Shown here: positions 8,727-61,066 of the stretch, piece after piece
Numbering within the stretch: the first letter of the stretch is position 1
Layout of the letters: each line of letters begins with the position of its first letter
Origin: a virus
IMG/VR virus record: IMGVR_UViG_3300037502_002145
Span: 51,872-115,871 of that record
Reading direction: 5' to 3' (one strand)
Length of the DNA: 64,000 bases
Notes under the pieces: generated by a model
The model's database searches: none
Told to the model about the DNA's origin: nothing
Seen by the model: the letters and a program-made list of their open reading frames with translations, nothing else
Translations under genes and position numbers: made by a program

Positions 8727-11700
8727 ATGAAAAGTAAAAATGAGAAATACAACTACATTATTACAAACTATGATAAATATAACCTTGAATTAACTAATGA
8801 GTATGACATGTTAATGCTGTTAAACAAACTAGAAGCATACGGAGAAACATTAGATAGTTTACACGATCTTGACGGTAACATGGACGGTTTTTGTGATTTA
8901 GTAGTAACAAATAACAGTTTATACACTGATTCAGAAGTTGCAAACGCCGTTATGGAATGTAATGCATTTTATGAAAGTAAAGAACAGTATTTAAAATATA
9001 CAGAAGAAGAAGGAGAAGACTTAGAGTTTTTATCTGAATTATGGGATAATCAATTAGAAGATGGAACAATAGTAAAAACAACAGATGGTTATGTTGAATT
9101 AGCAATCGTATAGAAAAGGGGTAAACAGAATATGAAACGTGAAACATTGGAACAAATAGCAGTCGATATTTTATCTCTATCAATGGAACACAATGGAGAA
9201 GAAGATCAAATAATAGAAGAAGTTAAAAACTTATCTGATGAAGAATTACAAAGATTTGTAAACGAATTATAAATTGAACTAACATTTTATTCATATTTTA
9301 GGAGGTACAGGCAATGAAAAAATATACCTATAGTCAACTACCTGCAAGCGGTAAAAAATTAGCACTAGACAATTATCGTTGCATAGTTGAACGTAAAGCA
9401 AGTAATAAAGAAGCCCAAGAGTATTATAATATGGGTGACGGTTACAATCCTATATTATTTAATAGTGAAGGGAATGAGGTAGACAACGATTAACAGTAAA
9501 TAGAATTAAGAATTTATCAATATTATAGGAGGATCTATCCATGAAAGAAAATCAAATAATCGTAGGTTATAAAGAAGGCAAGAAAGTTAAAATTAAAGGT
9601 AGTAAGTTAAAATGGAACGTATTAGAACCTATTACCCTAACAGTTGTAAAATAGTTAGTCATAGCATAACGGACGGCGTTTTAAATTGGTTCAATTCCAA
9701 TAATGCTATTATGAAATAAATATAAAACATAAAAGGAGATTAAGACAATATGAAAAACACTAAAATTTTAGAAATGATTAACAATGGAGAAATTGAAGAA
9801 CTAAAAGCACTATTACAAGATGAAATTTACAATGATACGCTAAACAGTAAAGCAGGATCAAAACAACGTTATGCGGCTATGAAACGTTATCAATCAAGTA
9901 TTGGTAAATATGATAATGAATTATTTAAACGTGTAGGCACTAACATTGATATTAAAGGAGAAAATTACAATTGTTTTATTGACGGTGTATGCCTTGCATT
10001 AACAACTGAAAACATTGGTGAACTAGAAAAACATGATAACAATAAACACGGTGAATATTTTAAAGTCGAAAGAATGATACCTGATTTATACATACCTCAC
10101 GGTAAAGTTAATTATAAAGAAATTCTAGCAGAAGCAAAACAATTAGGATATAAATTCTCTAAGGTAGCTAAAAATAATAAAATCACTGTTAAAATAAGCA
10201 ATGAACACTTAAACGTTGCTCTATTAGAAAAAGCATATAGCATAATAGATGATGGAGAAGAAGCAGAAATATTTATACCTAATGATAATGGAAAAAGTCC
10301 AGTAATATTTAAAACTTCAATTGGTATTTGTTTAGTGTTACCGATTAATATTAACAGCGATAATAATTTAGACTTAGTTATATTTGAAACAGAAATAAAA
10401 AATAAAAAAGTAGCTTAATGAAATAAATATAAAACATAAAAGGAGGTAATAATATTATGGATCTTGAAAAATTTTTAATAGAGTATGGGTTTTCAAATGA
10501 ACAAATAAAAACACTTATAAAAAAACGTACACTTAAAACAATGCACGGGGCTTATAAGTTAGATAAAAACAACAAGTTAACACTTAAAAGATATTAAATA
10601 GACTATAAAATCCTTGTTTTGTTGACAAGGTAGAAAAGAGGTAAACAGATGCAAAACATTAGAAGAAAGTTAGTTGATAAACTTTGTCAGAACTGGAAAT
10701 TTGATATAAATAATTTTGATAACATCATCATTACAGTAAATAATAAAGGCTATTCAAGAAAAATATATAATCGTTTCTATCCTGAACATGCATATATTAA
10801 TTTTAAAGGTGAAAAGTATTATTTTGAGAAGGAGAGGTAAACAAATTATGAAAACGGTTGATAATGATAAAATGACAATTACCTATGAAGATGAAAAGCT
10901 ATCATGTAAGAAATTTATTTATTTAACTTATGCAGATAGTAGCGACATAACATTTATCATGGAAGATATAATTGATATAAAATCAGGGCAATACGTTAGC
11001 ATGGAAGTAAAAGGCTTTTTCTTTGGTGAACCAACAATGGAAGGACTAAACGAATATTATAATAAGTTAAAAGCAGAATTCACATTATAAAATGAAAGGA
11101 AATAATAATATATGATTATTCAAGCAAGTAAAACAGAGGAAAATATTTATTTCAACTATGGAGAAGTTAACGAAACAGATCTAGAAAAATTAAAAGATAT
11201 AGCAGAAGACATATTTCCTATACTGTGCAATTCATGGAATTGCGATGATATTACATTCAGATTTGTAAATAACAAAAAAATAATCGATACATTTAGATTA
11301 TGGAGTTAAACAGAAACAGTAAACAAAACAATTATTTGATTTAAATAGAAGGAGTTTAACATGATAACAAAAAGTGATATAGAAATGAAAACTTATGCAA
11401 TATGGAAAGATCAGAAAGTAATAGGTTATATTGAACTAACAGAAGAACAAGCAAACAAATTAAACAGTAATCCTTTAACTGGTTTATATTTTGGTTTTGA
11501 CAGAGTAACGAATCCAGAAAAGTATGTACATTAATAGAAAGGCTATTTGATCTTATAAGGAGGTTATAAAACAATGTTTGAAATTGACAAAGATTATTTT
11601 GCAGACAATCCGCGAAATTATGATGATTGGATTAAGTATCCGATTACAGTATTCAAAAGAACAAAAAATTATTTATGGATTTACCACAAACACACGTTAA

Positions 11701-12189
11701 AAGATGAAGAGACTATAAGCGAGGATAAGTGCAAAAAGGTTAAAATTTATATGACAAATGGAGGATATGAGGGAATAAAAGTTAATGATGCATATTTTTA
11801 TGCAGCATGAAAGGGTTATTTTATCACTAGGAAGGAGATATTGAACAATGATTAAAGAAGAGTTAAAACAGAAAATAGAAGAACATAAACAGGAAAATAT
11901 AAGATTATATAACATTTTCCAATATAGATTACATGATGAAGAAATGCAAACTCTAATTAATCAATGGAGAGAAGGTAGCGCAAAATTAAAAGCATTAGAT
12001 AATGAATTGAATCAACTGGAAATGAAAGAACGTGACGAAAAACTAGCAAGCAAAGGTAATAAACAGGAAACAAAAACTTTTATAAATGGTTACGGAGAAT
12101 CAACAAACAAATATATAACAAGTTCAACATATGAAAGAGCAGAAAAGCGAAGACAAAAAGAAGTATTGTCTTTTATGGGTAATAGATAA
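8727..12189 (+). other. early-region run of small hypothetical ORFs (8727-9113, 9132-9272, 9314-9493, 9750-10418, 10649-10840, 10848-11090, 11112-11309, 11574-11810, 11848-12189 and others)
   Basis: Each has a strong GGAG/GGAGG RBS; co-oriented; many are separated by ATAAAA-N6-TTTTAT-type sites; no recognisable domains. Confidence 0.7.
9662..9708 (+). ncRNA. tRNA-like T-arm/acceptor mini-structure
   Basis: ATTGG-TTCAATT-CCAAT T-arm stacked on a TAGCAT/ATGCTA stem. Confidence 0.4.
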
Positions 12190-12470
12190 AAAGTATTAAA
12201 CACAATAATAGGAGGGTTATAACATGTTAACATTTGAGGAAATAAGTACAACACAAACAGAAGATAAAGAGTATATCGCAATAGGTGACAACGACAAGGA
12301 ATACGACGCACACTGGACAACAAAATATAACGGTGTAATGTTCTTTTGTATTCCTTCAACCGTTCAAGTGTTAGGATATAAAGAAAAATAAACAATAATA
12401 ATATAGTACAAACTATTGACAAAACTACTAGTTATATAGTAAAATAGTTATTGTAAGGAGGTTATAACAC

Positions 12471-16156: not shown

Positions 16157-17836
16157 ATGACAAACATGTTATATATAGAAGATAAAAATAAATTAACAAC
16201 TGAGCAATTAAAGTATAAAACTAATTCACCTCAATATCACTTCTTTGAAAGCTTATTTAAATATGGATGTTATTGGCTAGGAAGAACACATAAAGAGGGT
16301 ATAGAATTCGAAAATGAAATGATATCTGTATTAGACAAATTGGGGATAAAATACAATATTGTACCAAATTTTAAACTAGAAATCTAATATAAATAATAGA
16401 ATTTATCTTATGAAAGGAGACAAACAAATGGATAATTGGGAGCATGAAATGTTTCAACAAATGTGTATTGAAGACGATATTTATGAACAAAAAGACGAAC
16501 AAAGAGAATATGACGAATGTATGTCTGATTATTATAGCGGTAGTATGCAAATATAGATAAAAAGCAGATTTCATATAAGAAAGCGAGGTATATTAATGGA
16601 AGATAAAATTATGCAGATAATTAAAGAAGACGAATTCTTTTGTCCTAACGAAACGGGATTTTATGATAAACCACAAGAAACATTTAACGCAATTAAAAAA
16701 CTAGTGGATAAAGGATTAATAAGAAAAAGAAATTGTTTAGGGTTAGCATATGAATTAAACAAACAGTAAATAAAAGAATGTTTCTATTAACAGAAAGGAA
16801 TCAAAATGGAAAGAAGAAAAGTGTTATTTACTACTGGTATGACAGATGATAAACAGATAATTATTACAGATGCATCAAAAGAAGAAATTGAAAAGTGGTG
16901 TTATAGATATAATGAATCATTAGAAAATGGGAAAAGTATAGAACCATTTGACACTTTAAAAACTCAATACTATGTGAAAGAATTACATGATTCTGAAATT
17001 GATGATAATGAAAACGTAGACATTATTGGATATGACGAAGTATACGATCTATTTGATTATTACAGTAAATAAAAAGTAAATTTTATAAACAATAAACATA
17101 TAATGGAGGATTCAATCATGAAACAATATTATTACATCCTAATCAATGGCAAGAAAGCCTATACTAACGATAATCCACCAGCTAAGAAAATCGCAATATT
17201 AACACAGACAATAAACAATTTCAAGCATAAAACTATGATTTTTTGATAACAATACTAATATAAAACTTAAAGCTACTATTATACCGGATAATTGATTGAT
17301 ATATAGTCAAGTGGGTTCAACTCCTACTAGTAGCCATTCCATAATAAACGAAAGGAGAGAAACACAATGTCAACCTTTTACGACTGGTTGAAACTAAAGA
17401 AAGGTATTACAAAGAAATTATACGGTTGTTTGAGCCTTATTAAACAGAACGACCTCAGGGATGAATACTATAAATTATCAAAGAAACATTAGAAAGGAAA
17501 TTAAACAATGAAGAAGAATACATACAATAAAACAGACAAGATACTAACAGAAAGCATAGATTTAATAAACAGATCCAATAGACTAATTAATGACTTAACA
17601 GAGTTAGCAACAAAGTTAGAGCAGCTTAACGAAAGGATGGTAAAACAATGATATATTTAAACTATTTTAAACGATATATAAGCCGATATAGCCGGTTAGA
17701 ATTAGTAGGCATAGTATTTACTCTCTTAATGAGTTTGTGGCTCATATTAAGCTATATGGACATTGTAGCGAATAATCTTAGCACTTATACGTATGCGAAA
17801 TGGAATATAATAATTCTATTATCAAATATATTTTAA
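16157..17836 (+). other. run of small hypothetical ORFs (e.g. 16157-16387, 16806-17072, 17648-17836)
   Basis: RBS-led ORFs behind the TTGACA/TATAAT promoter at ~16048; several separated by motif-B sites. Confidence 0.6.
17272..17336 (+). ncRNA. compact tRNA-like RNA element
   Basis: 7-bp acceptor GCTACTA/TAGTAGC, T-arm GTGGG-TTCAACT-CCTAC, TTGAT/GTCAA arm, minimal D-arm, no variable loop. Confidence 0.5.
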
Positions 17837-18010
17837 CGATATTAATATAAAACTTTATATTGACATTGAGTTTGAATAGTATTATAATGATAGTAGTTAA
17901 ACAGATTGAAGAAAACTGGAAAAGGTTGTATAATGTATCAATAAAATATTGATTTTATTGTATATAATGGTAACTTGAAAACCAGCGTCTTATTTGATAT
18001 ACTGAATAAG

Positions 18011-18744: not shown

Positions 18745-19965
18745 ATGAAAACCACAAGAGCAGAACAACATATTATCAAAAAGAACAATCCTTTATGGCA
18801 AGTAGTAGACATCATGTGTTTTAAATCTAAGAACCTATATAACTTTGCCAATTATATTATAAGGCAAGAATTTATCAACAATGGTAACTGGATACATTAC
18901 AATTCACTTTTTGATTTATGTAAAGAAAGTGAACCATATAAAGATTTAGGTAGCAATGTTGGTCAGGCAACATTAAGATTGTTGGATAAAAACTGGAAAT
19001 CATTCTTCAAAGCCATAAAAGATTGGAAACAGTATCCAAGTAAGTATTTAGGTAGACCTAGATTACCAAAGTATAAACCTAAAGATGGTAGATTTATTTT
19101 AAGTATTGATAATAATAAGGTAATGCTGAAGGATGGCTATATATACTTTGCTTGGAAACCATTAAAAGTATTGAATAACCACTTTATTACTAAAATACCA
19201 CAAGATTGTAAAGTATTTCAATGCAGATTTATACCAAGTGGATCAAATTATACAATGGAAATAGTATATGAGATTGAAGTATCTGAACAACCGGAACATT
19301 CAGAAAGAATTATAAGCATTGATTTAGGAGTTGATAACTTTGTAACTATTACAAATAACATTGGACTAAAACCATTTGTTATTAAAGGCGGAGTAATTAA
19401 GTCAGTAAATCAATATTATAATAAAGAAAAAGCAAGAATACAATCCGAATTGAAAAAGGTTAATAAAAAAGATTGGAGTAATAAGTTACAGAAGTTGACT
19501 GATAAACGTAATAACAAAATTAAGTATTTGATGCATGTTTATAGCAAAAATATTATTGATTACTGCTTAAAGAATGGGATTGATACTATTGTATGCGGTT
19601 ACAACAAAGAGTGGAAACAAGAATCTGAAATGACTAAGAAAACTAATCAAAAATTTGTAACCATACCATATGAAATATTTATAAGCATGTTAGATTATAA
19701 ATCATTAGATAGTGGCAAGAAGTTTATTTTGAATGAGGAAGGCTATACGTCTGGAACATCATTTTTAGACAACGAAGAACCAATTAAGACTAACTACAAT
19801 AAAAGTAGAAGAGTTCATAGAGGTTTATTTGTTAGCAACAATGGTATTAAAGTCAATGCTGATGTAAACGGAAGTTACCAGATAATGAAGAAAGTATTCC
19901 CAAACGTCTTTGACAATGGGATAGAGGGTGCAGGTTTACACCCAATGGTATTTAAAATTGCCTAA
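18745..19965 (+). CDS. tnpB: RNA-guided endonuclease TnpB (IS200/IS605-IS607 accessory), orphan
   Basis: KNLYNFANY, PRLPKYK, SIDLGVDN, EEGYTS, NADVNGSYQI; RuvC-II position reads VCGYN; no adjacent tnpA. Confidence 0.9.
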   Translation: MKTTRAEQHIIKKNNPLWQVVDIMCFKSKNLYNFANYIIRQEFINNGNWIHYNSLFDLCKESEPYKDLGSNVGQATLRLLDKNWKSFFKAIKDWKQYPSKYLGRPRLPKYKPKDGRFILSIDNNKVMLKDGYIYFAWKPLKVLNNHFITKIPQDCKVFQCRFIPSGSNYTMEIVYEIEVSEQPEHSERIISIDLGVDNFVTITNNIGLKPFVIKGGVIKSVNQYYNKEKARIQSELKKVNKKDWSNKLQKLTDKRNNKIKYLMHVYSKNIIDYCLKNGIDTIVCGYNKEWKQESEMTKKTNQKFVTIPYEIFISMLDYKSLDSGKKFILNEEGYTSGTSFLDNEEPIKTNYNKSRRVHRGLFVSNNGIKVNADVNGSYQIMKKVFPNVFDNGIEGAGLHPMVFKIA

Positions 19966-20566: not shown

Positions 20567-21556
20567 TTGATTATGTGCTATAAGACAGAGAAACAGAAAA
20601 AAGAAAAGTTAAAACTAAAAGAAAAAATAAATGATTTACCTAAGTTTATAAAAGATTATTTTTCATATTTAAACAGTAATGTAACAAAATTAAATAACTG
20701 TGGCATCATAAGGAGTTTTCTTGAATGGTTAATATCTGAAGGAATAATAAAAAACAGCATAGTAAATATCACACCATCAGATTTAAGTTTGGTTACAGAC
20801 ATAGATTTAATTGAATATTTAAGTGGATTAAATAACAGTTTATCATCAATTAACACTAAAAAAAATGTAATAAGTGGATTTTGGGCTTATTTATTAGATA
20901 AAGAATATGTAAAAACCAACATTGTAAATAAAAAGCTACACGATAAATTTAAGGCAAAAGATAAAGAAGTAGTAGTACCAACAGACGAAGATATTTATCA
21001 GTTTATAGTTAATATTAATAATATCAAAAATGAAACTATAGCATTAAGAAACATTGCAATTGTAAGGTTATTCATGGGTAGCGGAATCCGAATTGAAGAA
21101 TTAGTTGGATTAGACGTTATAGATTTACATTTTGAAAACGAAGATGAACCATATGTGGTTGTCATGGGTAAGGGCATACAAGATGAAGACGATAAGCAAA
21201 ATGTTGCAATTAATAAGGCTGCTATGGATGCCATTAATGATTATTTACAAGTAAGAAACACAATTCCTGACATTAAAGAAACAAAAGCTTTATTTATATC
21301 AGAACAGTTGAATAAAGAAACCGGTAAAAGAACAAGAGTTGCTCAAAGTTCAATACAAGATTTTTTTAGAAAATACAGTAATGGAGCGATTCACCCACAT
21401 CTATTAAGACATTATGCTGGTACTAAAATGTATGAAAACAGTAATGATATTGTAGCTGTAGCCGCTCAATTAAGACATGGTGATGTAAACACAAGTAGAA
21501 AGTTTTACATCAAGAATAATAAGAGTGCAACTTATAAAGCGTTAAACAGTTTTTAA
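20567..21556 (+). CDS. tyrosine recombinase/integrase with intact catalytic residues
   Basis: GIRIEEL (R), GKG (K), HPHLLRH (H-x-x-R), LRH (H), KFY (Y). Confidence 0.9.
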   Translation: MIMCYKTEKQKKEKLKLKEKINDLPKFIKDYFSYLNSNVTKLNNCGIIRSFLEWLISEGIIKNSIVNITPSDLSLVTDIDLIEYLSGLNNSLSSINTKKNVISGFWAYLLDKEYVKTNIVNKKLHDKFKAKDKEVVVPTDEDIYQFIVNINNIKNETIALRNIAIVRLFMGSGIRIEELVGLDVIDLHFENEDEPYVVVMGKGIQDEDDKQNVAINKAAMDAINDYLQVRNTIPDIKETKALFISEQLNKETGKRTRVAQSSIQDFFRKYSNGAIHPHLLRHYAGTKMYENSNDIVAVAAQLRHGDVNTSRKFYIKNNKSATYKALNSF

Positions 21557-21601
21557 TTTGATTTACTAGTATTAAAATGATAATATAAGAGGTGATAATA
21601 A

Positions 21602-21826
21602 TTGACTAAAGTAAAGTATTATAGATTAAAGAACAACTTAAAACAGACCGAATTATCATCAATAAGTGAGGTTAAATTAAGCACAGTACAAAAGTTAGAT
21701 AGTGGGTTCAATGATATAAGAAAGTCTAGTTATGACACTATAGAGAAGATTGCTGGTGCTTTAAGTGTAGAGGTAGAAGATCTAATTGGATTTATTAATG
21801 ATGAAGATACGGCATATGGCGAATAG
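21602..21826 (+). CDS. XRE family HTH regulator
   Basis: KYYRLKNNLKQTELS...TIEKIAGALSVEVEDL. Confidence 0.8.
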   Translation: MTKVKYYRLKNNLKQTELSSISEVKLSTVQKLDSGFNDIRKSSYDTIEKIAGALSVEVEDLIGFINDEDTAYGE

Positions 21827-21837
21827 GGGGATGTGTA

Positions 21838-22302: not shown

Positions 22303-22311
22303 TCTACATAA

Positions 22312-22581: not shown

Positions 22582-22592
22582 GGGGTGTATAG

Positions 22593-42387: not shown

Positions 42388-42398
42388 GAGGTGATAAA

Positions 42399-46600: not shown

Positions 46601-46813
46601 AAACTTAAGGAAATAAATATAAAACTGTATTGACAAAGGATTAAACCTGTGATAAGATTAAATCATACCAAACGGACGGTATGATTTACATATTGCGGGT
46701 TTATTTTATAACAAGGACACTAATATAAAACCGGAACAAGTAAATAAAAGTTAAATTTCATTTACAAATCAACTAAAAACAATATTATACAATGAAAAGG
46801 AGATTGAAGTAAA

Positions 46814-47803: not shown

Positions 47804-47882
47804 ACCATAAACGAATGCTATATTAGCAACAAAATATTAATAGAACACTGTTTTTATTCGCAAATTTAAGGAGGAGATTATT

Positions 47883-48770: not shown

Positions 48771-49370
48771 ACTAAAATGCAAACAAAATTCCACTTTAAT
48801 TGAGTTTTCAGAAAGGAGTAAAATGTTTAAAACAAAAAGATGTCATTATAGCAAGAGTAATACTAGCGAAGATAAATCACTGGAAGATACATTGAATGAG
48901 ATATCAAAGATTGGAACAATAAGATTTATAACATCAGAATATTATGGTGGATCAGAAGTTGGCTACACAATTGTTTATGAATTAGAATAAATTCAGGTAT
49001 TAGTTGGAAAGGAGTATTAAATGAAAGGAACGTATAAAGGTTGCGAAATAGAAGTCACAAAAGAAAAATCATTAGCCGGTTATAAGATGTTATTTTATAA
49101 TATATTTGACGTATCTAATGGGCTTGAGGTCACTAGTGGTTACTCTGAAGGTGGTGATAAGGTAGTAGAGTTTTATGAATCATTAAAAGAAGTTGTAGAC
49201 GATTATAAGGATCACCCAGCGGACTATGAGTAATAAATAAACATAATAAATATAATACTGTAAATCAAAGTTGAGTTTGATGTGGTTTTAAACAACTAAT
49301 AACAAATATTTAAAACAGAAAGGAATAAATAATCCTAGGTAAATGTCTGCGCAGACGATAAGGAAGATTA

Positions 49371-50684
49371 TTGAATCCTATTTTTAATGAATACATACAA
49401 TTTTTAAATGATGCAAGTAAAAATAAACCTCCAGAGTTGAAAGAATTAAAAGAAGGATACTTTTGGTTGGATAAATCAATTATAAAATGCATTGATATGC
49501 AAGGCAATGTTCATAAGATTTTAAGAGTTAATATAGCAAACGATTTAACACATATCACCCTAACAAAGCCAAAGACAGGATATTCAAAACTAGACAACAT
49601 TGAATTAGCCAGTTGGGAAGATTTGATTACAAATAATATAAAATATTTAAAAGAAATAGAATCTGAGTCGTTAAGTTTAATTAGAGGTAAACTTGCTAAA
49701 TACAAAGAATATACACCGATAACACCAATTTCTACAGGTAAAGATTCAATGATTACAGATCATCTAGTAAGAGAAGTTAAAAAAGATGTGCATGACATAT
49801 TTAATAATTCAACGCTTGATTGTGCAGAAACATATAAAATGGCAAAAGCACATCCGAATTGTGAAATCTTAACACCAGATGAAGGGTTTTATCAATACAT
49901 AGAAAGAGATAATGTTATTCCAACTCGCTTCGCACGATTCTGTTGTAGGATTTTTAAAGTAGGAGAGATGGTAAAACGACTAGACCATAATAAAAAGTAT
50001 CTGTTCTTCATGGGCATGAGAAACGAAGAAAGTGATACCCGTAGTGATTATGGAGATGAGTGGGTTAATTCGGCAGAATGGGGAGATACAGAATGGCAAG
50101 GTATTTTACCTATCAGAAAATGGTCTGAGTTAGATGTGTGGTTATATACGTTTTGGAAGAAACTTGAGATAAATCCTAAGTACAGAAAAGGTTATTCAAG
50201 AGTTGGTTGTGCAATTGCTTGCCCCTACTATACAAAATCTACTTGGATATTAGATGTTTATTGGTATCCTACCATGAGAAAAAGATGGGAAGAAATTTTA
50301 AGAAAAGATTTCATTAATAATAAGAAATGGATAGTAATGAATTGCACAATAGAAGAATACATAACGGCAGCATGGAATGGCGGATCGTATAGAAATGAGC
50401 CAACACAAGAAGTAATTGAAGAATATGCTAAATACAATGATTTAGAAGTTGATGTAGCTACTAAATATTTCAATAAGGTTTGCAGTAACGGATGTAAAAA
50501 TACCAAAGGTAAAGAATTAAAAATAAAAGATAAGGCGGTTCTTGGTATGAACATGAAACTTTATGGCAGGCATATTGAAAAATTTAAGTGTAAGAAGTGC
50601 TTAATGAAGGAACTTAGATGGAGTAAAGAGGAGTGGAACAATCAAGTTGCCAGATTTAAAGATCAAGGTTGTAAACTATTTTAA
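49371..50684 (+). CDS. PAPS reductase family (PP-loop) protein
   Basis: ISTGKDS, RFCCRIFK, GMRNEES..R, PIRKWS, Y.KGYSRVGCAIACP. Confidence 0.85.
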   Translation: MNPIFNEYIQFLNDASKNKPPELKELKEGYFWLDKSIIKCIDMQGNVHKILRVNIANDLTHITLTKPKTGYSKLDNIELASWEDLITNNIKYLKEIESESLSLIRGKLAKYKEYTPITPISTGKDSMITDHLVREVKKDVHDIFNNSTLDCAETYKMAKAHPNCEILTPDEGFYQYIERDNVIPTRFARFCCRIFKVGEMVKRLDHNKKYLFFMGMRNEESDTRSDYGDEWVNSAEWGDTEWQGILPIRKWSELDVWLYTFWKKLEINPKYRKGYSRVGCAIACPYYTKSTWILDVYWYPTMRKRWEEILRKDFINNKKWIVMNCTIEEYITAAWNGGSYRNEPTQEVIEEYAKYNDLEVDVATKYFNKVCSNGCKNTKGKELKIKDKAVLGMNMKLYGRHIEKFKCKKCLMKELRWSKEEWNNQVARFKDQGCKLF

Positions 50685-50724
50685 TACATAGTAAAAATAT
50701 AAAACTTATAAGGAGAATGTAAAA

Positions 50725-51294
50725 ATGAGAATAGATATTATGACAGATATTGAAACGTTGGGCAGAGGAGATAATACAACAGTATTTCAGATTGCAGCGT
50801 GTGCTTTTGATATTACAACAGGGAAAATATTAAACACCTTTAACCAAATAGCTAATATTGAAAAGGATAAAGATGTTCCAATTGATGGTGGTACTTTACT
50901 TTGGTGGTTGAAGATCAATAAAGAGTTATTGACTGAATTGTTAGACAAAGGAAATGTATCGCAGAAAGAAATGTTTATAAACTTTAAAGATTGGATTAAA
51001 GAGTTATGCGATGACGAAACAAATGTATTCTTATGGGGTAATGGTATTCTGTTTGATAATAAATTAATTCAATCTAAAATGAAACAGTATAATATTGAGT
51101 ACCCAATCTTTTATAGAAACGATAGAGATATGAGAACAATTGTTGAGTTGGCGGCTTTAAAGACGGGGGTAAAAACAGAGAAGGAATTTAGAAACATTAA
51201 CAGGGGCAAAGAATATGTTGAGCATGATGGATTAGATGATGTTAAAGCTCAGATTGATGTTTTATCAAAAGCTTGGAATATTTTATTGAATTAA
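50725..51294 (+). CDS. DEDD 3'-5' exonuclease (DUF5051/exoVIII-like)
   Basis: DIETLG, WGNG..FD, RDMRT, HDGLDD. Confidence 0.8.
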   Translation: MRIDIMTDIETLGRGDNTTVFQIAACAFDITTGKILNTFNQIANIEKDKDVPIDGGTLLWWLKINKELLTELLDKGNVSQKEMFINFKDWIKELCDDETNVFLWGNGILFDNKLIQSKMKQYNIEYPIFYRNDRDMRTIVELAALKTGVKTEKEFRNINRGKEYVEHDGLDDVKAQIDVLSKAWNILLN

Positions 51295-51295
51295 C

Positions 51296-51342
51296 ATACT
51301 ATATATAGTGTTAGATGGGTTAATATATACAATATATAGATA
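51296..51342. promoter_or_regulatory. tandem NrdR boxes (31-bp spacing)
   Basis: ATACTATATATAGTGT and ATACAATATATAGATA, upstream of dcm-nrdH-nrdD-nrdG. Confidence 0.7.
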
Positions 51343-51415
51343 TATAAAACGAATAAAATGTAATTTTTATTTAGTTTAATGCGATTAATATAAAACAATA
51401 ATAAAGGAGAATGTA

Positions 51416-52768
51416 ATGGAAAAAGTTAAATTAACGATGAATGAGTTATTTAGTGGTATAGGAGCACAGAAACGTGGTATTAATCTTACCGAATTATTTG
51501 ATTGTGAGGTAGTTTGCACTTCAGATATTGATAAAGAAGCGATGCTTAGTTATGCAGCTATACATAATAGTTTAACAGAAGAAATGATAAATACATATGA
51601 TCAATATCCAAGTAGAGAAATTATGGCTCAACTACTTTCAGAAAGAAATATTGGTTACGATTTTAAGAATAATAAACCATATGATTGGAACAAACACATT
51701 AAACAAAAGAAAAATAAAACATTAGAAAAATATTACTTAGCGTGTGTTTTGTCTGATAATCTTGGAGATATAAGCTTAATTAAAGAATTACCATATGCTG
51801 ATTTATGGACTTATTCTTTTCCTTGTCAAGATTTAAGTGTTGCTGGTAAAGGGGCAGGTATTAAAAAAGGAACTAGAAGTGGATTGTTGTTAGAGGTTGA
51901 AAGACTATTAGAGATTGCAGTTAATAATGAAACACAACCTAAAATTTTAATGCTAGAAAATGTAAAAAATCTAGTTGGAAAAAATAATAAAGATGATTTT
52001 GATGCCTGGCTAAGTAAGCTTGATGAGTTAGGTTATAATACATATTGGCAAGTTGTTAATGGAAAAGATTGTGGTATTCCACAAAACAGAGAACGTGTTT
52101 TTGCAATTAGCATAAGAAAAGAATTTGACACTGGATTATTCGAATTTATGAAACCGTTTGATAATGGTCTACGATTGAAAGATTTTCTTGATTACATAGT
52201 TGAAGATAAATATTATATTAATACTGAAAAAGCAAATAATTTAATAGAACAAATAATAAAAAGGGGATATAAAAGCAACACTGTATTAGTCAAAGATCAG
52301 GCAACTAATTATAGCAAAGATATTGAATTCTCAAACACTTTAATGGCTAGAGATTGGAAGGGGTTTGGAAATCAAGATATGGTCGCAGTGGTAGAATCAA
52401 TAAGAATAGGTGGTTTATTTGATGATGATAAGAAACATCAAGCTGGTAGTATTTGGGATGTTAGTGCCATGTCTCCTACCATAGACACATGTCAAGGAGG
52501 ATATAGAGAACCATGCATTTTAACTAAAGACACAGTTTTAAAAATTAGAAGATTAATACCTAAAGAGTGCTGGAAACTTATGGGTTTTGCGAGTACAGAC
52601 ATTCAAAAGGCGATGAACATAGGTATTTCAGATACTCAATTATATAAACAAGCAGGAAATTCAATTATTACATATTGTATCAAATTATTAATGGAACATA
52701 TATACAAAGCACAGTTTGATAATACATATATTTGCTATGATGAATATGTCACAACAAAATTAATATAA
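51416..52768 (+). CDS. dcm: DNA (cytosine-5)-methyltransferase
   Basis: ELFSGIG, FPCQDLS.AG, ENV, PQNRER, RRL.P.EC, YKQAGNS. Confidence 0.95.
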   Translation: MEKVKLTMNELFSGIGAQKRGINLTELFDCEVVCTSDIDKEAMLSYAAIHNSLTEEMINTYDQYPSREIMAQLLSERNIGYDFKNNKPYDWNKHIKQKKNKTLEKYYLACVLSDNLGDISLIKELPYADLWTYSFPCQDLSVAGKGAGIKKGTRSGLLLEVERLLEIAVNNETQPKILMLENVKNLVGKNNKDDFDAWLSKLDELGYNTYWQVVNGKDCGIPQNRERVFAISIRKEFDTGLFEFMKPFDNGLRLKDFLDYIVEDKYYINTEKANNLIEQIIKRGYKSNTVLVKDQATNYSKDIEFSNTLMARDWKGFGNQDMVAVVESIRIGGLFDDDKKHQAGSIWDVSAMSPTIDTCQGGYREPCILTKDTVLKIRRLIPKECWKLMGFASTDIQKAMNIGISDTQLYKQAGNSIITYCIKLLMEHIYKAQFDNTYICYDEYVTTKLI

Positions 52769-52788
52769 CACAATAAAGGAGTGATATT

Positions 52789-52971
52789 ATAGAAGATTAT
52801 ATTTACGGTCAACTATTAACTAGAAATAAAGAAGATACAATCAGAGAATATTTTGTTATTCCATGCCAAAAGTGGTTCTTTATACGTTGGATGTTTAAGC
52901 TGGGATGGGATTATAGAGGAGAGACAGAAGTTAACGATGGCTATATTATCACTCTGACACGCAACAAATAA
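52789..52971 (+). CDS. hypothetical protein, 60 aa, ATA start
   Basis: AAAGGAGTGA RBS followed by an open frame IEDYIYGQLL...TRNK. Confidence 0.45.
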   Translation: MEDYIYGQLLTRNKEDTIREYFVIPCQKWFFIRWMFKLGWDYRGETEVNDGYIITLTRNK

Positions 52972-53025
52972 AACAATCCTAGAAATAGGTTGTTATAGAT
53001 ATCAAAACTATAAGGAGGAATTAAA

Positions 53026-53238
53026 ATGATTCGATTAATAGGAAATCATGGTTGTTCAAGATGTGAAATGACAAAGAAAATATTAGAAAATAAAGGTATT
53101 GAGTATACATACGAATATCTATCTAATCTTTCAGAAGCTGAACAAACAGATATTATGGAAATGGCAAAAGAAAAGGGAATGATGGCTATGCCAATGATAC
53201 TCAGAGACAATAAACTAATTGACATGAAGGAGATATAA
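53026..53238 (+). CDS. glutaredoxin/NrdH-like redoxin
   Basis: CSRC motif, L..KGIEY, MPMI. Confidence 0.8.
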   Translation: MIRLIGNHGCSRCEMTKKILENKGIEYTYEYLSNLSEAEQTDIMEMAKEKGMMAMPMILRDNKLIDMKEI

Positions 53239-53239
53239 T

Positions 53240-55141
53240 ATGTATTTTAAAACAACTTACACAGAAGAATTTGATGATTTATATATGCACTTAAAAGCAA
53301 AATATCCACAAAAATTATTTGATCTTGATGGTATTGGTAAACAGTTAGATATGTCTGAATTTAGTAAGAACTTTTTTGCATCAAGTGTAACGGCAGATGC
53401 AAGTATAGACGCTAATGCTAACGTAGATGATGTGTCCGTTATCGCTTACAACACTGAATTACCTAAGCCATTTTTTAAGATCAACAGTTACTACGTATTA
53501 TGGAAAGAATTAAGAAGATTATATGGGTTAGAAGTAGCCAATAACATAGTTGAATTACAATTAACTGGGGGTATTTACATACATGATTTTCATGGAGTAG
53601 GAGCTGGTATGCCGTATTGTTTTAATTATTCTACATACGACATAATGACCAAAGGACTCCCTATGGTTAAAAAAGTTAAATCGTTACCACCTAAGCACCT
53701 ATATGCATTCAAATCACAACTAGAACAATTTACCGTTATTGCATCAAATTCAACATTAGGAGCTACTGGATTAGCAGATTTATTGGTTGTAATGAGTTAC
53801 TACGTTAATAACATACTAAAAAGCAAAACAGACGCACACTTTAAGTTTGAAACAGAAGAAGATTGCTGGATTTATGTAAAAGAGAACATTATTTCTTTTA
53901 TTTATACAATTAACCAACCAATGAGAGCAAATCAATCCCCATTTACAAACATCAGCATTTATGATGAATATTTTTTAGATAAGTTATGTGATGATTATCT
54001 TTTTCCAGACGGTTCAAATCCTAATAAAGAGATAGTAAAAAACCTACAGAAAATATATTTAGATATTATGAATGATGAATTACGTAGAACTCCGCTAACT
54101 TTTCCTGTGACAACGGCTTGTTTTTCAATTGATAGTGAAAATAACATAAAAGATGAAGCATTTTTAAGGTTTATTGCTGAACAAAATAAGGAATATGGGT
54201 TTATCAATATATATTGTGGCGACAGTTCAACGCTTTCAAGTTGCTGTAGGTTAAGATCAGAACAGAAATCAGAATACTTTAATTCATTTGGTAGTGGTTC
54301 AAGTAAAATTGGTAGCCTTGGAGTGTGTTCAATAAATTTCCCAAGATTAGCTATTCAGTTCCCTAATAGAGAAGACTTTTTACAACAACTAGTAAAAATG
54401 GTAGAAGTCTGTGCGAAAGTTAATAATGCAAAAAGGCACATAATCGAAAAGAGAATTAAAAATGGGAATGAGCCACTATACACGTTAGGATATATGGAAT
54501 TGTCAAAACAGTATTCAACGGTGGGGGTCAACGGTTTTAATGAATGTATTGAGATTTTAGGGGAAGATATACTAGAAGAAAATGGTCAAAATCTTGCTAT
54601 CGAAATATTAGATACAATTAATTTAACCAACACAAAGTTCCAAAAGCAATATAATGCGCCACACAATTGTGAACAAGTACCGGCAGAAGGTTTGTCAGTT
54701 AAATTAGCAGACAAAGATAAACTGCTTGGATATCAACATGATTATGACATTTATAGTAATCAATTTATTCCTCTAGTAACAAATGCAGATATGTTAGATA
54801 GAATTAAATTACAAGGGATGTTTGATAAACATTTCTCAGGTGGAGCAATATGTCACTTAAATGTTGATTCTAAAATTGAGAAAACTGAAGACATAATGGA
54901 TCTAATTCGTATTACTGCAAAGATGGGCGTTGTTTATCATGCTATCAATTATGTATTAGAAGAATGTGAAGATGGTCATATGAGCGTAGGAAATGGCGAA
55001 GTATGCTCAATATGTGGAAAACCAATTATTAATAAATACACTCGTGTTGTTGGATTCCTTACTAATGTAAAGAATTGGAATAAAACACGTAGAGAAAAAG
55101 ATTTTCCTAACCGTCAATTTTACGGCGGAGTACAAGTGTAA
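53240..55141 (+). CDS. nrdD: anaerobic (class III) ribonucleoside-triphosphate reductase
   Basis: YIHD, PYC, TFPV, SSCCRL, GSLGVCSIN, PAE, SGG, RVVGF glycyl-radical motif. Confidence 0.95.
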   Translation: MYFKTTYTEEFDDLYMHLKAKYPQKLFDLDGIGKQLDMSEFSKNFFASSVTADASIDANANVDDVSVIAYNTELPKPFFKINSYYVLWKELRRLYGLEVANNIVELQLTGGIYIHDFHGVGAGMPYCFNYSTYDIMTKGLPMVKKVKSLPPKHLYAFKSQLEQFTVIASNSTLGATGLADLLVVMSYYVNNILKSKTDAHFKFETEEDCWIYVKENIISFIYTINQPMRANQSPFTNISIYDEYFLDKLCDDYLFPDGSNPNKEIVKNLQKIYLDIMNDELRRTPLTFPVTTACFSIDSENNIKDEAFLRFIAEQNKEYGFINIYCGDSSTLSSCCRLRSEQKSEYFNSFGSGSSKIGSLGVCSINFPRLAIQFPNREDFLQQLVKMVEVCAKVNNAKRHIIEKRIKNGNEPLYTLGYMELSKQYSTVGVNGFNECIEILGEDILEENGQNLAIEILDTINLTNTKFQKQYNAPHNCEQVPAEGLSVKLADKDKLLGYQHDYDIYSNQFIPLVTNADMLDRIKLQGMFDKHFSGGAICHLNVDSKIEKTEDIMDLIRITAKMGVVYHAINYVLEECEDGHMSVGNGEVCSICGKPIINKYTRVVGFLTNVKNWNKTRREKDFPNRQFYGGVQV

Positions 55142-55602
55142 TGAATATTCTAAGTACACAATACACCCTTGCAACAAAATCATTAGATATATACGTGGCT
55201 GGTTGCAAGGGGCAGCCACACTGTAAAAACTGTCATAATCCTGAAAGCTGGTGCTTTGACAATGGAAAACCGTATATACCATTCTTCCATAAACACATAA
55301 AAAATAAACTGATTGAGTTTGATATTGCAATAGAAAATATAATGGTTTTTGGTGGTGAACCATTAGACCAAACATACGAAGATATTTTAACCTTACTTAT
55401 GAGATTGAGTGATTATAATAAATCAATTTGGTTATTTACGAGATACGAATTAAATGAAGTACCCGAAGAAATAAAAGGAATATGCGATTACATAAAGTGT
55501 GGTAGATACAGAGAAGATTTAAAGTGTGAAAATAACATAAGTTATGGTATAAAACTTGCTACAAGTAATCAAAAAGTATTTAAAAGAGGAATAGACTACT
55601 AA
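55141..55602 (+). CDS. nrdG: NrdD activating radical-SAM enzyme
   Basis: GC...HC..CHNPESW, GGEPL, KCGRY, SNQ. Confidence 0.9.
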   Translation: MNILSTQYTLATKSLDIYVAGCKGQPHCKNCHNPESWCFDNGKPYIPFFHKHIKNKLIEFDIAIENIMVFGGEPLDQTYEDILTLLMRLSDYNKSIWLFTRYELNEVPEEIKGICDYIKCGRYREDLKCENNISYGIKLATSNQKVFKRGIDY

Positions 55603-55625
55603 TTGTAGTGTAACACTAATTATAA

Positions 55626-55673
55626 ACACTATATATAGTGGTATACGCTTAACACAACCACTATATATAGTAA
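55626..55673. promoter_or_regulatory. tandem NrdR boxes (32-bp spacing)
   Basis: ACACTATATATAGTGG and CCACTATATATAGTAA, downstream of nrdG and upstream of the dUTPase cluster. Confidence 0.75.
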
Positions 55674-55721
55674 ATATTTGTAAATAAAACAGCTATTTTA
55701 TTAAGAGAGAAAGGAGTGTTT

Positions 55722-56907
55722 ATGAAAAACGAAGAAAGATATATAAAATCTTCAGACAGAGGCGAATTTAAGTATGAAGTATTAGAAGCAGATGAATGGA
55801 CTGGAAGAATTGTATTAGAAGAGTGTATTTATAACGATAAATCAGTGGGTACAATAAGAAATAATTGTGGTGAATATGAAATAGAAATAGACAATCTTAT
55901 AAATGATCCTGTTTATATTTTTGAAACTAGATCATCTCGAAAATTAGCTAGACAATTATTAGAGCGAATTATTAATAACGATATTTCTAATAATGGGAAG
56001 AACAATAAATATAAATAAAAGTATATTTTTATTAGGTAAAAAGAAAGGAGAATTAATCATGAGAATTAAATTAGTTTATGAATCAAATTTATGTTGGGTT
56101 ACATCAAGAATTGTAGAGGTTCAATCCAACATCTCAGATGAAGATATTAAAGCTTTGTTTGAATTAAATCTAGGCGTTAAATACGACGATAACACCTGTT
56201 ATTGGGTTGTATTAGATGAAACTGTAACTGAAAAAGAAATGTTAGCTTATACAGAATAGGAGGATTATATGCCAAGAGGACGTAAATCAGAAGAAACAAA
56301 TAATGGTGTACTAAACTTAATTGCACTAGATGAAAACTTAATTGAAGATAACACCAAAACGCCTAATATACAGATTGATGATTGTGGTGGAATTTCGGTT
56401 GACAAGAATGGTAATTGGGAGTTAGTTAAAATTGATCAGACTACTGTTACAGAGGATAATATTAAAACTGCTACAAATTCATTTGGTGATAAATACACCA
56501 TAGGAGATACATATCAACAATGGTCATCAATGGGTAAATACTTAGATTCTTATGTAAGTGCAGTTGAAACATATGCAAAGTTAAGATTCTTAGATGAAGT
56601 AAGCAAATTAAAATATTGTAGAGATATTTCAAAGCTTGTCGAAATTCAAACTGAGATTAAGGATTCTATTAGTAAATTTGCAGTAGAAAACGTTGTACCA
56701 CAGATTGTTAAAGATATTGGATTATCTATGAATCAGCTACAATCAATTAAGAAAGACATCGCTGAACTACAAGAATTAAAGAAAACAATGATCGAAGATT
56801 GCAATGAATTTATGAATGTAGTTGCAGAGAAACGAAATACGATGATAGCCAAAGGCATTATTGAGCAGAAGAAAACCAAACATAGAATCAAGGAGGAAGA
56901 GCAATGA
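55722..56907 (+). other. hypothetical ORFs (55722-56018, 56059-56259, 56269-56907)
   Basis: RBS-led ORFs. Confidence 0.6.
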
Positions 56908-57906: not shown

Positions 57907-57953
57907 GGATATTAATATAAAACATAAAATCAAAGTTTGATTAAGAAGCACTG

Positions 57954-58508
57954 TTGGTAACAAGTGGTCTAATTAAAAAAGGAGTGATAAAGATTGATAG
58001 CTTAGAATTAGCTAAAGAATTTGGTAGAAATCACAAAGATGTTTTAGAGAGTATATCCAATTTTTTGAAGAGAAATAAAGAATATGAAGAACATTTTGTT
58101 ATTGGTCAATATAAAGCTAGTAATGGGAAACATAATAAGCGATATATAATGAGTGATATTGCTTACAACATTATGAGTGAAAAATTTAAATATAATATTA
58201 GATCACAAAGGCTAGAATACATATTTGGCAATGAAATATATGATTATTTTTCTAAATTAGGCTATACTATCGAAACACAAAAACTAGTTTGTAATAAATA
58301 TAAAGTAGATTTCTACATAGAATCACTTAATTTAGTGATTGAATACGATGAGGAACACCATAAAATTAAAGATAATAATAAAAATGACAAGTTAAGACAA
58401 AAAACAATAGAAAAAGAACTAAAGTGTAGTTTTATAAGAATACCAGAAACTATTAGTATTGGTGAAGCAATAGGTATAATAACTAAATACATATTAAAAA
58501 TTGCATAA
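57954..58508 (+). CDS. Rha family regulator fused to a DUF559-like endonuclease domain
   Basis: DSLELAKEFGRNHKDVL; YKVDFY...VIEYDEEHH...D..RQ..I; the real start may be ATT 57993. Confidence 0.75.
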   Translation: MVTSGLIKKGVIKIDSLELAKEFGRNHKDVLESISNFLKRNKEYEEHFVIGQYKASNGKHNKRYIMSDIAYNIMSEKFKYNIRSQRLEYIFGNEIYDYFSKLGYTIETQKLVCNKYKVDFYIESLNLVIEYDEEHHKIKDNNKNDKLRQKTIEKELKCSFIRIPETISIGEAIGIITKYILKIA

Positions 58509-58559
58509 TAAAAGGTGCATTTTATTGATATTAATTAAGAAAGAAGAGAGGTAAGATAT

Positions 58560-59681: not shown

Positions 59682-59730
59682 GGTTTATAAAAGATGTATT
59701 TTAACAGGGTAAGAAAGGAGTCAATACAAA

Positions 59731-61066
59731 ATGGGAAAGATTTTGTCTAAAAAAGATTTACAATATGGCTGTTTTTTGGCAGGTTATAATTGCGTGAAAT
59801 GTGGCAAAACAGTAATAGTAAAAAATTTTAGCTGGGGAACTGATAAACTTGGATTTGGTGACACAGATGGAATTTCATTTGAATTAGACAAATTAATGAA
59901 GAAAAAAGAAATCAATTATTGTTGCAAATGTGGGTCTGAATTATAAAATCTAAATATCATAGTGAATTGAATTAGGATTTTATTAAGAAAGGAGTGGGAT
60001 AATGAACGAGATAGAGATTGATAATTTAATTTTAGAACTTAGTAGATTATGTTTTACAGTGTCAGCAGGAACGTATTATTCAGAGACATGTTTAGAATTG
60101 GATGATGTAATTGAATTACTTAAAGAAAAATTACTTAAAACTTAAGATAATAGGTAGTTTGATTTACAACAGACTAATAAAACAGTAAAGGAGTGGTTAC
60201 ATATGATTGAAATGTATGAGAAAGCCACTGGTAGAAAAGTGATTATATATGACATAACAGAAGATGGTCACGGTTATGCTAAATTCTTAGTACGTAAAAA
60301 TGGTGCATGGGTTTGGAGAAGTGCTAAACATTATATTCCGGTTGAAGAAAATTTGATATAGAAAGGAGAATTATATTGGATAAATATTTAATTTTTATTG
60401 AAACAGGAGGTTCACAAGGAGATTATAAGATTAGTTATTCTCACTACTATATATGTGAAGGAACAACTGAGGAAGAGGCTGTAATCAATTGGTATAACAA
60501 AGTAAATAATTACATGAAAGAACTTTATAAGACCGATCAGTATAAAAATTACAAATATAACCAAACAAAGCCAAAATTAACTTGTGAAAATGGAGTTTGG
60601 AGAGAAAGTGGTTATATTTTACAAGTAATAAAGTTAAAAGAATTTGAAGATAATGGAGTTTGGAAAAAGCTTAAATGGATATAAATGTGTTATTTTATTA
60701 AGAAAGGACGTGTATAAATGATAATCAAACGCAACTGGAAAAAGCAAAAGGGATTCAGAACTTATTATTATACCGGCTATTTCCTGTTTGGGATTATACC
60801 ATTGTTCATTGTTAGCGATTATATAGCATAAGGATATTAATATAATACTGAAAGGAAATGAAGATATGACTAAAACAACAAGATTATGTAACAAATGCGG
60901 AAGAGAAATTGAGAGTTTTAATGATTTTACTTTAATCTATCAGTTTGGCTATGAATCTAAGTTTGATGGTGATTATTTAAATCTCGATTTATGTGGTTGT
61001 TGCTTGGATGAATTTGTGGATCACCTAATTGCAACGTGTCAAATAAAGCCTGTAATTGAAAATTAA
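59731..61066 (+). other. small hypothetical ORFs (59731-59946, 60376-60684, 60866-61066 and shorter ones)
   Basis: RBS-led ORFs, some with CxxC pairs, several separated by motif-B sites. Confidence 0.55.

Follow-up and report, generated by a model that had tools for sequence, protein, structure and literature searches.

The DNA considered here comprises the final 64 kb of an IMG/VR phage contig of 115,871 bp (G000, 30% G+C), and the whole of this 64,000-nucleotide stretch is referred to as the window. The element in question is an 18-bp dyad, ATAAAA-N6-TTTTAT, in which two inverted 6-bp arms enclose a 6-bp centre (N6). The genes of the contig are laid out in two divergent arms, and dyads occupy both of them. 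Pfam analysis of the window proteins identified three TnpB proteins, Sak, DnaB, a GIY-YIG endonuclease, a C5 methylase, and NrdD. Two window proteins have a recombinase fold, a Phage_integrase member at 20567–21556 and an MrpR_N_CB member at 26089–27051; MrpR/YopR aligns with the latter (E = 3e-8), and the alignment of YopP with the former is weak. The window also encodes a DnaE-type polymerase of 1135 amino acids (aa). A 971-aa protein, which occupies window positions 1–410 on the minus strand and continues upstream, has a Pfam RdRP match and was related by tblastn to YonO of Bacillus phage SPBc2 (24%) and to the BUCT082 homolog (46%). In SPbeta, the single-subunit RNA polymerase is YonO (PMC5467207). 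The contig can be identified as an SPbeta-like phage from four of its proteins, namely the YonO-type RNA polymerase, the DnaE-type polymerase, the YopP-like recombinase, and the MrpR-like repressor. The closest RNA-polymerase relatives among genomes were in Lachnospiraceae metagenome-assembled genomes, and a scan of genome contigs for relatives returned Lachnospiraceae and Bacillales prophages. When 20 kb of the window were searched by megablast in the phage collection, no match was obtained.

The ATAAAA-N6-TTTTAT dyad pattern is real. Ten perfect copies are present in the window, where dinucleotide shuffles predict 0.25, and 13 in the whole contig. With the N6 spacing, the contig contains 24 one-mismatch copies in addition to the 13 perfect ones, whereas each of the other spacings from N0 to N15 gave 0–3 perfect copies; when the hexamers were placed in everted or direct order, the counts were flat. 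Intergenic DNA, which makes up 15% of the contig by a simple gene model, harbors 12 perfect dyads (0.09 expected from an intergenic Markov model) and 21 dyads with one mismatch (1.7 expected by the same model), and those with two mismatches are near the background (23 versus 17 expected). A position weight matrix (PWM) trained on other phages only, with a threshold of at least 10 bits, detected 33 intergenic sites in the contig against 1.8 expected. The window holds 26 PWM sites, which are intergenic without exception (Table 1). The pooled logo of 147 sites from four genomes has approximately 14 bits, all within the 18 bp, with A avoided at position 7 and T avoided at position 12. Neither longer arms nor an extended 24–28-bp palindrome was found in the 147 sites.

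The preliminary description of the window had listed about 35 sites, ten of them perfect, and had held that they lie at gene boundaries, often carry the upstream stop codon in the left arm, often enclose one ORF, and are absent among the core replication genes. The ten perfect dyads are located where it had placed them, and their intergenic placement was borne out by the PWM and Markov analyses. Of the 36 positions listed (10 perfect, 17 with one mismatch, and 9 with two), 11 fall under the PWM threshold (9273, 9500, 11323, 11534, 16112, 20003, 29506, 36751, 48783, 49264, and 59966), including all nine two-mismatch sites, and the 26 confident sites in the window include one (22308–22325) that was not on the list. 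The stop codon was found in the left arm at all eight dyads named for this feature. It is TAA at left-arm positions 2–4 at 11807, 17069, 30244, 33698, 34448, 56015, and 60681, and at 29777 it is provided by ORF 29658–29780. Many pairs of neighboring dyads in the window indeed bracket one single ORF, and no confident dyad lies within the replication block (36838–46340).

Table 1. Dyads and associated features of the window. Arms are in capitals and centres in lowercase, bit scores are from the PWM, and the strand of each listed dyad is given as ".".
Feature	Position	Strand	Remarks
Dyad ATAAAA-tccttg-TTTTGT	10605–10622	.	11.4 bits; intergenic; upstream stop 7 nt before
Dyad ATGAAA-gggtta-TTTTAT	11807–11824	.	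12.8 bits; left arm holds upstream stop
Dyad ATAAAA-agcaga-TTTCAT	16557–16574	.	11.1 bits; adjoins upstream stop
Dyad ATAAAA-gaatgt-TTCTAT	16770–16787	.	10.2 bits; adjoins upstream stop
Perfect dyad, core agtaaa	17069–17086	.	14.8 bits; left arm holds stop
Perfect dyad, core tattga	17941–17958	.	16.4 bits; long gap, then TATAAT-like hexamer
Dyad ATAAAA-cagaga-TTCTAA	22308–22325	.	11.7 bits; intergenic; upstream stop 5 nt before
Dyad ATGAAA-taggag-TTTTAT	28023–28040	.	12.6 bits
Dyad ATCAAA-gaagtc-TTTTAT	28409–28426	.	12.5 bits
Perfect dyad, core ccaaga	29293–29310	.	17.1 bits
Perfect dyad, core gtcaat	29777–29794	.	15.1 bits
Dyad ATAAAA-tgtgga-TTTTAA	30244–30261	.	16.4 bits; left arm holds stop
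Perfect dyad, core ccgtgt	31267–31284	.	16.0 bits; TAATATAAAAC motif precedes
Dyad ATAAAA-tgagaa-TTATAT	33698–33715	.	10.5 bits; left arm holds stop
Perfect dyad, core acaaca	34448–34465	.	15.2 bits
Dyad ATAAAT-gtaaca-TTTTAT	34633–34650	.	12.5 bits
Dyad ATAAAT-gaggca-TTTTAT	35441–35458	.	13.6 bits
Dyad ATAAAA-gttaaa-TTTCAT	46744–46761	.	11.9 bits
Dyad ATAGAA-cactgt-TTTTAT	47840–47857	.	10.5 bits
Weak dyad ATCAAA-gttgag-TTTGAT, symmetric C/G change	49264–49281	.	Sub-threshold; core GTTGAG colinear in G002
Perfect dyad, core tgtaat	51353–51370	.	14.8 bits
Perfect dyad, core cagcta	55684–55701	.	17.4 bits; 18/18 identical in G002, flanks non-homologous
Perfect dyad, core gtatat	56015–56032	.	14.5 bits; core common to G002, flanks unrelated
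Dyad ATAAAA-tcaaag-TTTGAT	57924–57941	.	12.3 bits; TAATATAAAAC motif immediately before
Perfect dyad, core ggtgca	58508–58525	.	17.7 bits
Dyad ATAAAA-gatgta-TTTTAA	59687–59704	.	15.6 bits
Dyad ATAAAT-gtgtta-TTTTAT	60681–60698	.	12.7 bits; left arm holds stop
Xer-like tyrosine recombinase, 329 aa, candidate enzyme	20567–21556	+	Pfam Phage_integrase, 6e-22
Sak (Rad52-type) single-strand annealing protein	36838–37575	+	Pfam SSAP_Sak, 3e-24
TAATATAAAAC motif, examples	16038, 17846, 24061, 27778, 28057, 30694, 46618, 57439, 57916

The dyad is widespread in the phage family. SPBc2 has about 30 dyads; its matches number 26 on the forward and 17 on the reverse strand, compared with 2 and 1 for a control pattern, and BUCT082 gave 18 forward and 30 reverse matches against 0 and 0. 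The strict dyad is also enriched in many AT-rich uncultured IMG/VR relatives, and 30–50 dyads are present per genome in relatives. The SPBc2 dyads occupy the same kind of gene junction as those of the contig, and the stop codon is TAA at left-arm positions 2–4 in yoqG, yoqS, yoqY, yorT, mtbP, yorZ, yosF, and yosR. In the annotation of SPBc2 (AF020713), some copies are labeled only as stem-loops. Three relatives carry variant arms that are changed symmetrically and occur at spacing 6 only. These are ATGAAA-N6-TTTCAW in G009, where the core GAAA-N6-TTTC is found 20 times against approximately 5 at other spacings, and AAGAAA-N6-TTTCTT, found 38 times in G005 and 24 times in G007 against approximately 8 and 4. 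Of the 37 distinct sites in a Cytobacillus genome of 4.8 Mb, 27 are inside a 133-kb SPbeta-like prophage. This concentration indicates that the reader of the dyad is phage-specific and not a general host factor, and a host-factor site was ruled out on this basis.

The contig has no close relative (conservation at the DNA level is limited to the polymerase), and breakpoints were therefore analyzed in the SPbeta family by comparing four phages, SPBc2, phi3T, SPR, and SPbetaL3. The early regions of SPBc2 and phi3T have 50 homology-block ends, seven of which are within 6 nt of a dyad, whereas 0.8 is expected at random; when only the 36 ends at gene junctions are considered, seven are again within 6 nt against 2.1 expected (p = 0.005). 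If the distance is widened to 12 nt, 10 block ends are near a dyad, whereas 2.8 are expected. A breakpoint is present at 14 of the 29 junctions that bear a dyad and at 18 of the 96 others (odds ratio 4.0, p = 0.002). The two phages share a 3.2-kb block with 99.97% identity, which starts at the first base of the dyad ATAAAATGTAAGTTTCAT and ends inside the right arm of ATAAAAGTAAAATTT, where the sequences continue with TAA versus CAT. When all four genomes are considered, dyads coincide with 35 of the 160 junction-zone breakpoints, which is approximately 3-fold more than expected (11.1), and each genome alone gave a significant result. In a separate observation, the dyad with the core TGTAAG (SPBc2 83687, phi3T 76354, SPR 92697, and SPbetaL3 101493) is a multi-way breakpoint, at which or within 25 nt of which three phage pairs switch from homologous to unrelated sequence.

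The centres of the dyads are shared between these phages far beyond chance, with 97 same-N6 site pairs against approximately 4.4 expected. The homology of their flanks was assessed by gapped local alignment of 150 nt per side, using the 99th percentile of unrelated sequence as the threshold. Both flanks are homologous in 35 pairs, only the left in 15, only the right in 16, and neither in 31. Thirteen centres are colinear wherever they occur. Ten of them are present in all four phages and three in three phages; their order is TGCATA, TCGTAC, TGTAAG, GATGCA, GTAAAA, AGACTG, GATAGT, TATTTA, TGATAA, TATCTC, GATCAA, TTTGTC, and TATTCC. The genes between these centres differ among the phages. Within a single genome, no N6 occurs twice in the contig, G001, or G030, for which approximately 4.6 coincidences are expected (P = 0.01). 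The arms of the pairs with one homologous flank allow the crossovers to be positioned. When only the left flank is homologous, the left arm differs in none of the 15 pairs and the right arm in 10 of them, and when only the right flank is homologous, differences were found in the left arm for 5 of the 16 pairs and in the right arm for one. This association between arm variants and flanks is significant (Fisher p = 0.0014; per locus, 0/8 versus 3/1, p = 0.018). Because the informative arm variants include positions 6 and 13, the crossovers are placed in positions 7–12, which correspond to the centre.

Dragos et al. (bioRxiv 10.1101/2020.05.06.055103) reported phi3Ts–SPbeta hybrid and extrachromosomal DNA junctions from experimental evolution, and their Supplementary Table 1 gives fifteen junctions in long homology and terms one non-homologous; the dyad motif is not mentioned in that work. 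The chromosomal coordinates were converted to those of SPBc2 by seven block-end anchors that match BLAST boundaries, with a constant sum of 2,286,450 ± 7. Junction N1, the "non-homologous" one, maps to SPBc2 116,417, inside the dyad at 116,414–116,431. At this site, the parents share exactly 18 bp and nothing more, and the phi3Ts coordinate is within approximately 10 nt of the matching dyad. Junction 7, with a listed homology of 30 bp, maps to the dyad at 69,423–69,440, and the shared stretch consists of the dyad and a few bases. The location of 2 of 17 laboratory junctions on 18–30-bp islands despite kilobases of homology suggests that these are hot spots, in what is a small sample.

In the lineage of the contig itself, a comparison was made with G002, a 40-kb contig with a 76% identical polymerase. 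The two share the centres GTTGAG (49264), CAGCTA (55684, identical at 18/18 positions), and GTATAT (56015) in the same order, and the flanks of these three dyads are non-homologous at the DNA level. The chance expectation for the two high-confidence pairs is 0.14 (P = 0.009). Between the shared dyads, G002 has NrdD and then the methylase, and in G000 two additional genes are followed by the methylase, NrdD, and a 153-aa protein (55141–55602). The proteins of this region that are common to both are only 35–46% identical. As a side observation, the order of NrdD and the C5 methylase in the window (49264–56032) is opposite to that in G002 (20684–26129). The exact 18-mer of 55684 has 29 matches in viral contigs. 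No RNA data set was listed for the window, and the only sequencing run that contains it is a subsurface metagenome, which may be the source of this DNA. Apart from the source contig, the contigs of this metagenome and of two sister runs gave only short matches of low complexity, and no meaningful joints or excised circles were found.

The candidate enzyme for a reaction at these sites is the Xer-like protein at 20567–21556, which lies in the middle of the array with dyads on both sides. Only five solved structures matched it, all of XerA, XerH, or XerD, and the R, K, HxxR, H, and Y positions were aligned with those of XerA. Its homologs are 37% identical in G001, 39% in G005, and weaker elsewhere. 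The inverted arms around a 6-bp centre, the crossovers inside the centre, the identical centres of the partners, and the uniqueness of each centre within a genome point to a site-specific reaction that requires matching centres, a hallmark of tyrosine recombinases. Strand exchange in the central region between identical centres is indicated indirectly, by the comparison of the SPbeta-family phages and by the laboratory junctions.

Here, we propose that the dyads are phage-specific recombination joints, that is, core-type sites with the arms (A)TAAAA and TTTTA(W) and a 6-bp centre. On the sequence comparisons described above, this function is probable. The arms would be the common recognition element, and the centre would serve as the address of the locus, being different at each junction in one genome and kept at the equivalent junction in relatives. 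The occasion for exchange would be the meeting of related SPbeta-like genomes, either by co-infection or when a phage encounters a resident prophage. Dyads with the same centre would then be exchanged by a crossover within the centre, and the gene or genes between two addressed dyads would be swapped without disturbing the gene order. Strand exchange may be catalyzed by a tyrosine recombinase that needs identical centres, which in this phage would be the Xer-like protein at 20567–21556, and the dyads of the contig may be used in the same manner as those of the Bacillus relatives. In its complete form, the proposal amounts to a natural recombinase-mediated cassette exchange, in which a phage Xer-like recombinase acts only on matching centres and accessory genes are swapped at high frequency with their order kept. 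This complete form is put forward tentatively, as a possible rather than a probable scheme.

Several observations weigh against recombination at the dyads or against the enzyme suggested for it. None of the phage proteins is tied to the dyads, and phylogenetic profiling found no protein that tracks them; the premise of the profiling was later lost, as the "motif-negative" relatives carry arm variants. The homologs of the Xer-like protein do not sort by arm type, and an integrase is present in every temperate phage, so that its presence is not discriminating. YopP of SPBc2 (78691–79767) shows H-S-F-K where the window recombinase has H-L-L-R, apparently a Lys in place of the second catalytic Arg and a possible loss of this residue, as judged by eye from one pairwise alignment. 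Only 6 bp per arm are informative (approximately 14 bits in total), which is short in comparison with the 9–13-bp arms of characterized recombinases. Only approximately 22% of the junction breakpoints are at dyads, and most exchange thus takes place elsewhere; likewise, only 4 of the 15 ends of blocks with at least 98.5% identity are at dyads. The identity of N6 within the SPbeta family may have recent common ancestry as its plain cause, and the site pairs analyzed are not independent events. Many dyads are 5–25 nt upstream of a ribosome-binding site, so that their primary role may be in gene expression. The evidence from the contig's own lineage is thin, consisting of three addresses in common with one relative in the absence of a close one, and the centres that it shares with G001, G030, or SPBc2 are at chance level only.

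The main rival to recombination joints is a regulatory function. The dyad would primarily be an operator, one of the alternatives named in the preliminary description, to which a phage-encoded protein binds as a dimer; this protein could be a roadblock, a silencer, or a global regulator. Recombination hot spots would arise as a by-product, either of the tight binding or of the short conserved sequence itself. A dimer on duplex DNA classically leaves the features found here, namely a fixed spacing, sequence-specific palindromic arms, and arm changes that are symmetric and particular to a lineage. Within G009, the arm positions show no covariation (A/T 4, G/C 10, G/T 4, A/C 4), and the dyads are phage-specific. 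Moreover, the recombinase-fold protein MrpR already serves SPbeta-like phages purely as a repressor (PMC10516654). An operator accounts for the arms but not for the addresses, because the uniqueness of a non-contacted centre and its retention when both flanks change are unexplained, and the crossovers are inside the centre and not around the site. Most dyads are within operons, far from promoters, and no candidate regulator tracks the motif; an HU/IHF-like reader (Pfam PF00216) was not found in the contig or in the complete genome G030. We regard a primary operator function as unlikely. The dyad could also act in the mRNA as an intercistronic element, a weak or protein-bound hairpin that controls translation, coupling, processing, or stability, with the breakpoints being secondary. 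Its location between the stop codon and the Shine–Dalgarno sequence fits this function, as do the frequent presence of the upstream stop in the left arm, the right arms of G001 that often adjoin GGAGG, and the bias of the terminal base with the direction of transcription (TTTTAA). The last feature can also be explained by overlap with an extended Shine–Dalgarno sequence, and in long gaps the dyad is near the stop or the start, sometimes without an adjacent ribosome-binding site. A stable RNA hairpin is unlikely, as the minimum free energies of the 18-mers are only between −0.2 and −0.7 kcal/mol and their stem probabilities in context have a median of 0.07–0.2. An RNA processing signal was the other alternative named in the preliminary description. 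A·C mismatches are as common as G·U, and the conservation of a "loop" per locus despite unrelated flanks is unexplained. An mRNA element is improbable, and more so than an operator.

The breakpoints themselves could be explained if the dyad were a short conserved linker for ordinary or relaxed homologous recombination, for example of the Sak/Rad52 type, without a dedicated site-specific enzyme. Sak is encoded by the phage and is a possible alternative mediator of short-homology exchange, and laboratory junction 7 was scored as 30 bp of homology. The promoter-early stem-loops (PeSLs) of T4-type phages operate in such a manner (PMC2839356). Homologous recombination, however, has no need for palindromic arms, a fixed 6-bp centre, or symmetric lineage-specific arm changes, and the crossovers are confined to the 6-bp centre. 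A length of 18 bp is very short in comparison with the kilobases of homology nearby, yet 2 of the 17 laboratory junctions are at dyads. We consider a linker of this type slightly less probable still than an mRNA element. The least probable function, and a very improbable one, is that of a promoter, pause, or terminator signal of the YonO-type RNA polymerase. It was suggested by the initial finding of the motif only in phages with close YonO homologs. In SPbeta, the late operon alone depends on YonO and has a single start site (PMC5467207), and most dyads are in early regions. The complete genome G005 gave no YonO match in this search and nevertheless has AAGAAA-N6-TTTCTT dyads, and the conservation of the addresses is not explained. 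The link to YonO was rejected on the single late promoter of SPbeta and on the dyads of G005.

Among known systems, the dyads resemble the Xer/dif sites (XerH-difH, XerS-difSL, and archaeal XerA-dif) in their inverted arms, 6-bp central strand-exchange region, and inner A/T tracts. In difH, the site of XerH, a 6-bp centre separates a left arm ending in GAAAA from a right arm that starts with TTTT (PMC5357621). A dif site is present once per replicon for dimer resolution and has arms of approximately 11 bp, whereas the phage dyads number 25–50 per genome, each with a different centre, and only 6 bp per arm are conserved in the 147 sites. The pdif sites of Acinetobacter plasmids are similar as multiple Xer-type sites of accessory regions that flank discrete adaptive gene modules in varied contexts (PMC6449649). 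They are XerC/XerD hetero-sites of 28 bp on which the Xer system of the host presumably acts, in contrast to the short homodimer-type palindromes described here, which are phage-specific and have syntenic, locus-specific centres. The PeSLs, like the dyads, are short intergenic repeats of plastic regions at which relatives differ by gene insertion, deletion, or replacement (PMC2839356), but they are cassettes of a strong sigma70-like promoter and a terminator stem-loop that recombine by homology, whereas the dyads have variable centres and crossovers in the 6-bp core. The dyad contains neither a −35/−10 pair nor a G+C-rich stem, and the promoter-like TAATATAAAAC motif is a separate element at a variable distance.

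The preliminary description had interpreted the sites as an integron-like cassette system, with the tyrosine recombinase at 20567–21556 as a candidate enzyme. The dyads do share with integron cassettes that recombination sites bound single genes, that the stop codon is often in the site, and that the reaction is attributed to a tyrosine recombinase. The part of that interpretation that holds is the dyads as boundaries of exchangeable gene units; the expected breakpoints in the N6 core were found among the SPbeta-family phages, and the recombinase is intact and Xer-like, with aligned catalytic residues. The integron label does not fit. Integron attC sites are 57–141-bp imperfect repeats (R''-L''/L'-R') that are recombined as folded single strands, whereas the dyad is an 18-bp, duplex-type site, and the nearest relatives of the recombinase among solved structures are XerA, XerH, and XerD. 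Integrons capture and excise circles at one platform, whereas the reaction proposed for the dyads is an exchange at addressed junctions; there is no attI/Pc platform, and no distinct attI was seen in the contig. Nothing shows the capture of free one-gene circles, and the analogy to Tn916, in which non-identical cores are tolerated, is not supported, as the exchanged partners carry identical cores. The closest parallel to the complete proposal is the engineered cassette exchange at heterospecific lox or FRT sites, which likewise have identical arms and differing spacers. Only sites with the same spacer recombine, and a segment between two sites that differ is therefore swapped without deletion. 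These systems are man-made and have 13-bp arms, and to our knowledge, no natural phage counterpart has been described.

The SPBRE, the published operator of MrpR in SPbeta (PMC10516654), is like the dyad a repeated intergenic element of the SPbeta family and is bound by a recombinase-fold protein. It is a 15-bp non-palindromic element with the core AATATGTATA at approximately 10 promoters. Identity of the dyad with SPBRE was rejected, as the core common to 9 of 10 MrpR ChAP-seq promoters is AATATGTATA and not the dyad. The contig has a separate, asymmetric intergenic motif of its own, (T)TAATATAAAAC, which is oriented with transcription and is often directly followed by a ribosome-binding site or by the −35 hexamer TTGACA. 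The sequence AATATAAAAC is present 35 times in the contig and 2–6 times in relatives. This motif is probably the counterpart of SPBRE, read by the MrpR-like protein at 26089–27051, a protein with no homolog in G001, G005, or G003.

Other features of the phage are as follows. TnpB/Cas12f-like genes are located at 18745–19965, 31922–33202, and 35621–36667. The DnaE-type polymerase (42399–45806) has 70–76% aa identity across phages, and the other replication proteins only 30–43%; this gene is unusually slow-evolving or was recently exchanged. In the contig (48408–53866), two conserved partners, one of 404 aa (window 781–1995) and one of 318 aa, flank the RNA polymerase. In comparison with G001, the RNA polymerase is 71% identical and its two partners 54–65%, although the majority of the remaining genes are unrelated. 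An actin-like partition protein of the ALP/ParM type and an FtsK/SpoIIIE-like ATPase are encoded where the rightward arm begins (2754–5248); the presence of an FtsK-type motor next to Xer-like sites may be of interest. A gap of approximately 2.3 kb (6431–8727) has no convincing ORF in the gene model used.

The mosaicism of phages is a long-standing question, in which random illegitimate joints followed by selection are set against dedicated linker sequences. The dyad is a defined short site in the tractable SPbeta/B. subtilis system and also in remote relatives from Firmicutes of the gut, the rumen, and the subsurface, and it matches module boundaries at nucleotide resolution as well as two recombinants that arose in the laboratory. 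A description of the dyad was not found in the SPbeta literature examined, which did not cover the 1999 SPbeta genome paper, where an earlier mention is possible. If a recombinase reads the dyads, they would be a natural counterpart of the engineered cassette exchange at heterospecific sites. The mosaicism of these phages would then be programmed and address-coded, which would account for the movement of defence, counter-defence, methylase, and toxin genes between related phages without loss of order, and the dyads would offer a ready tool for phage engineering.

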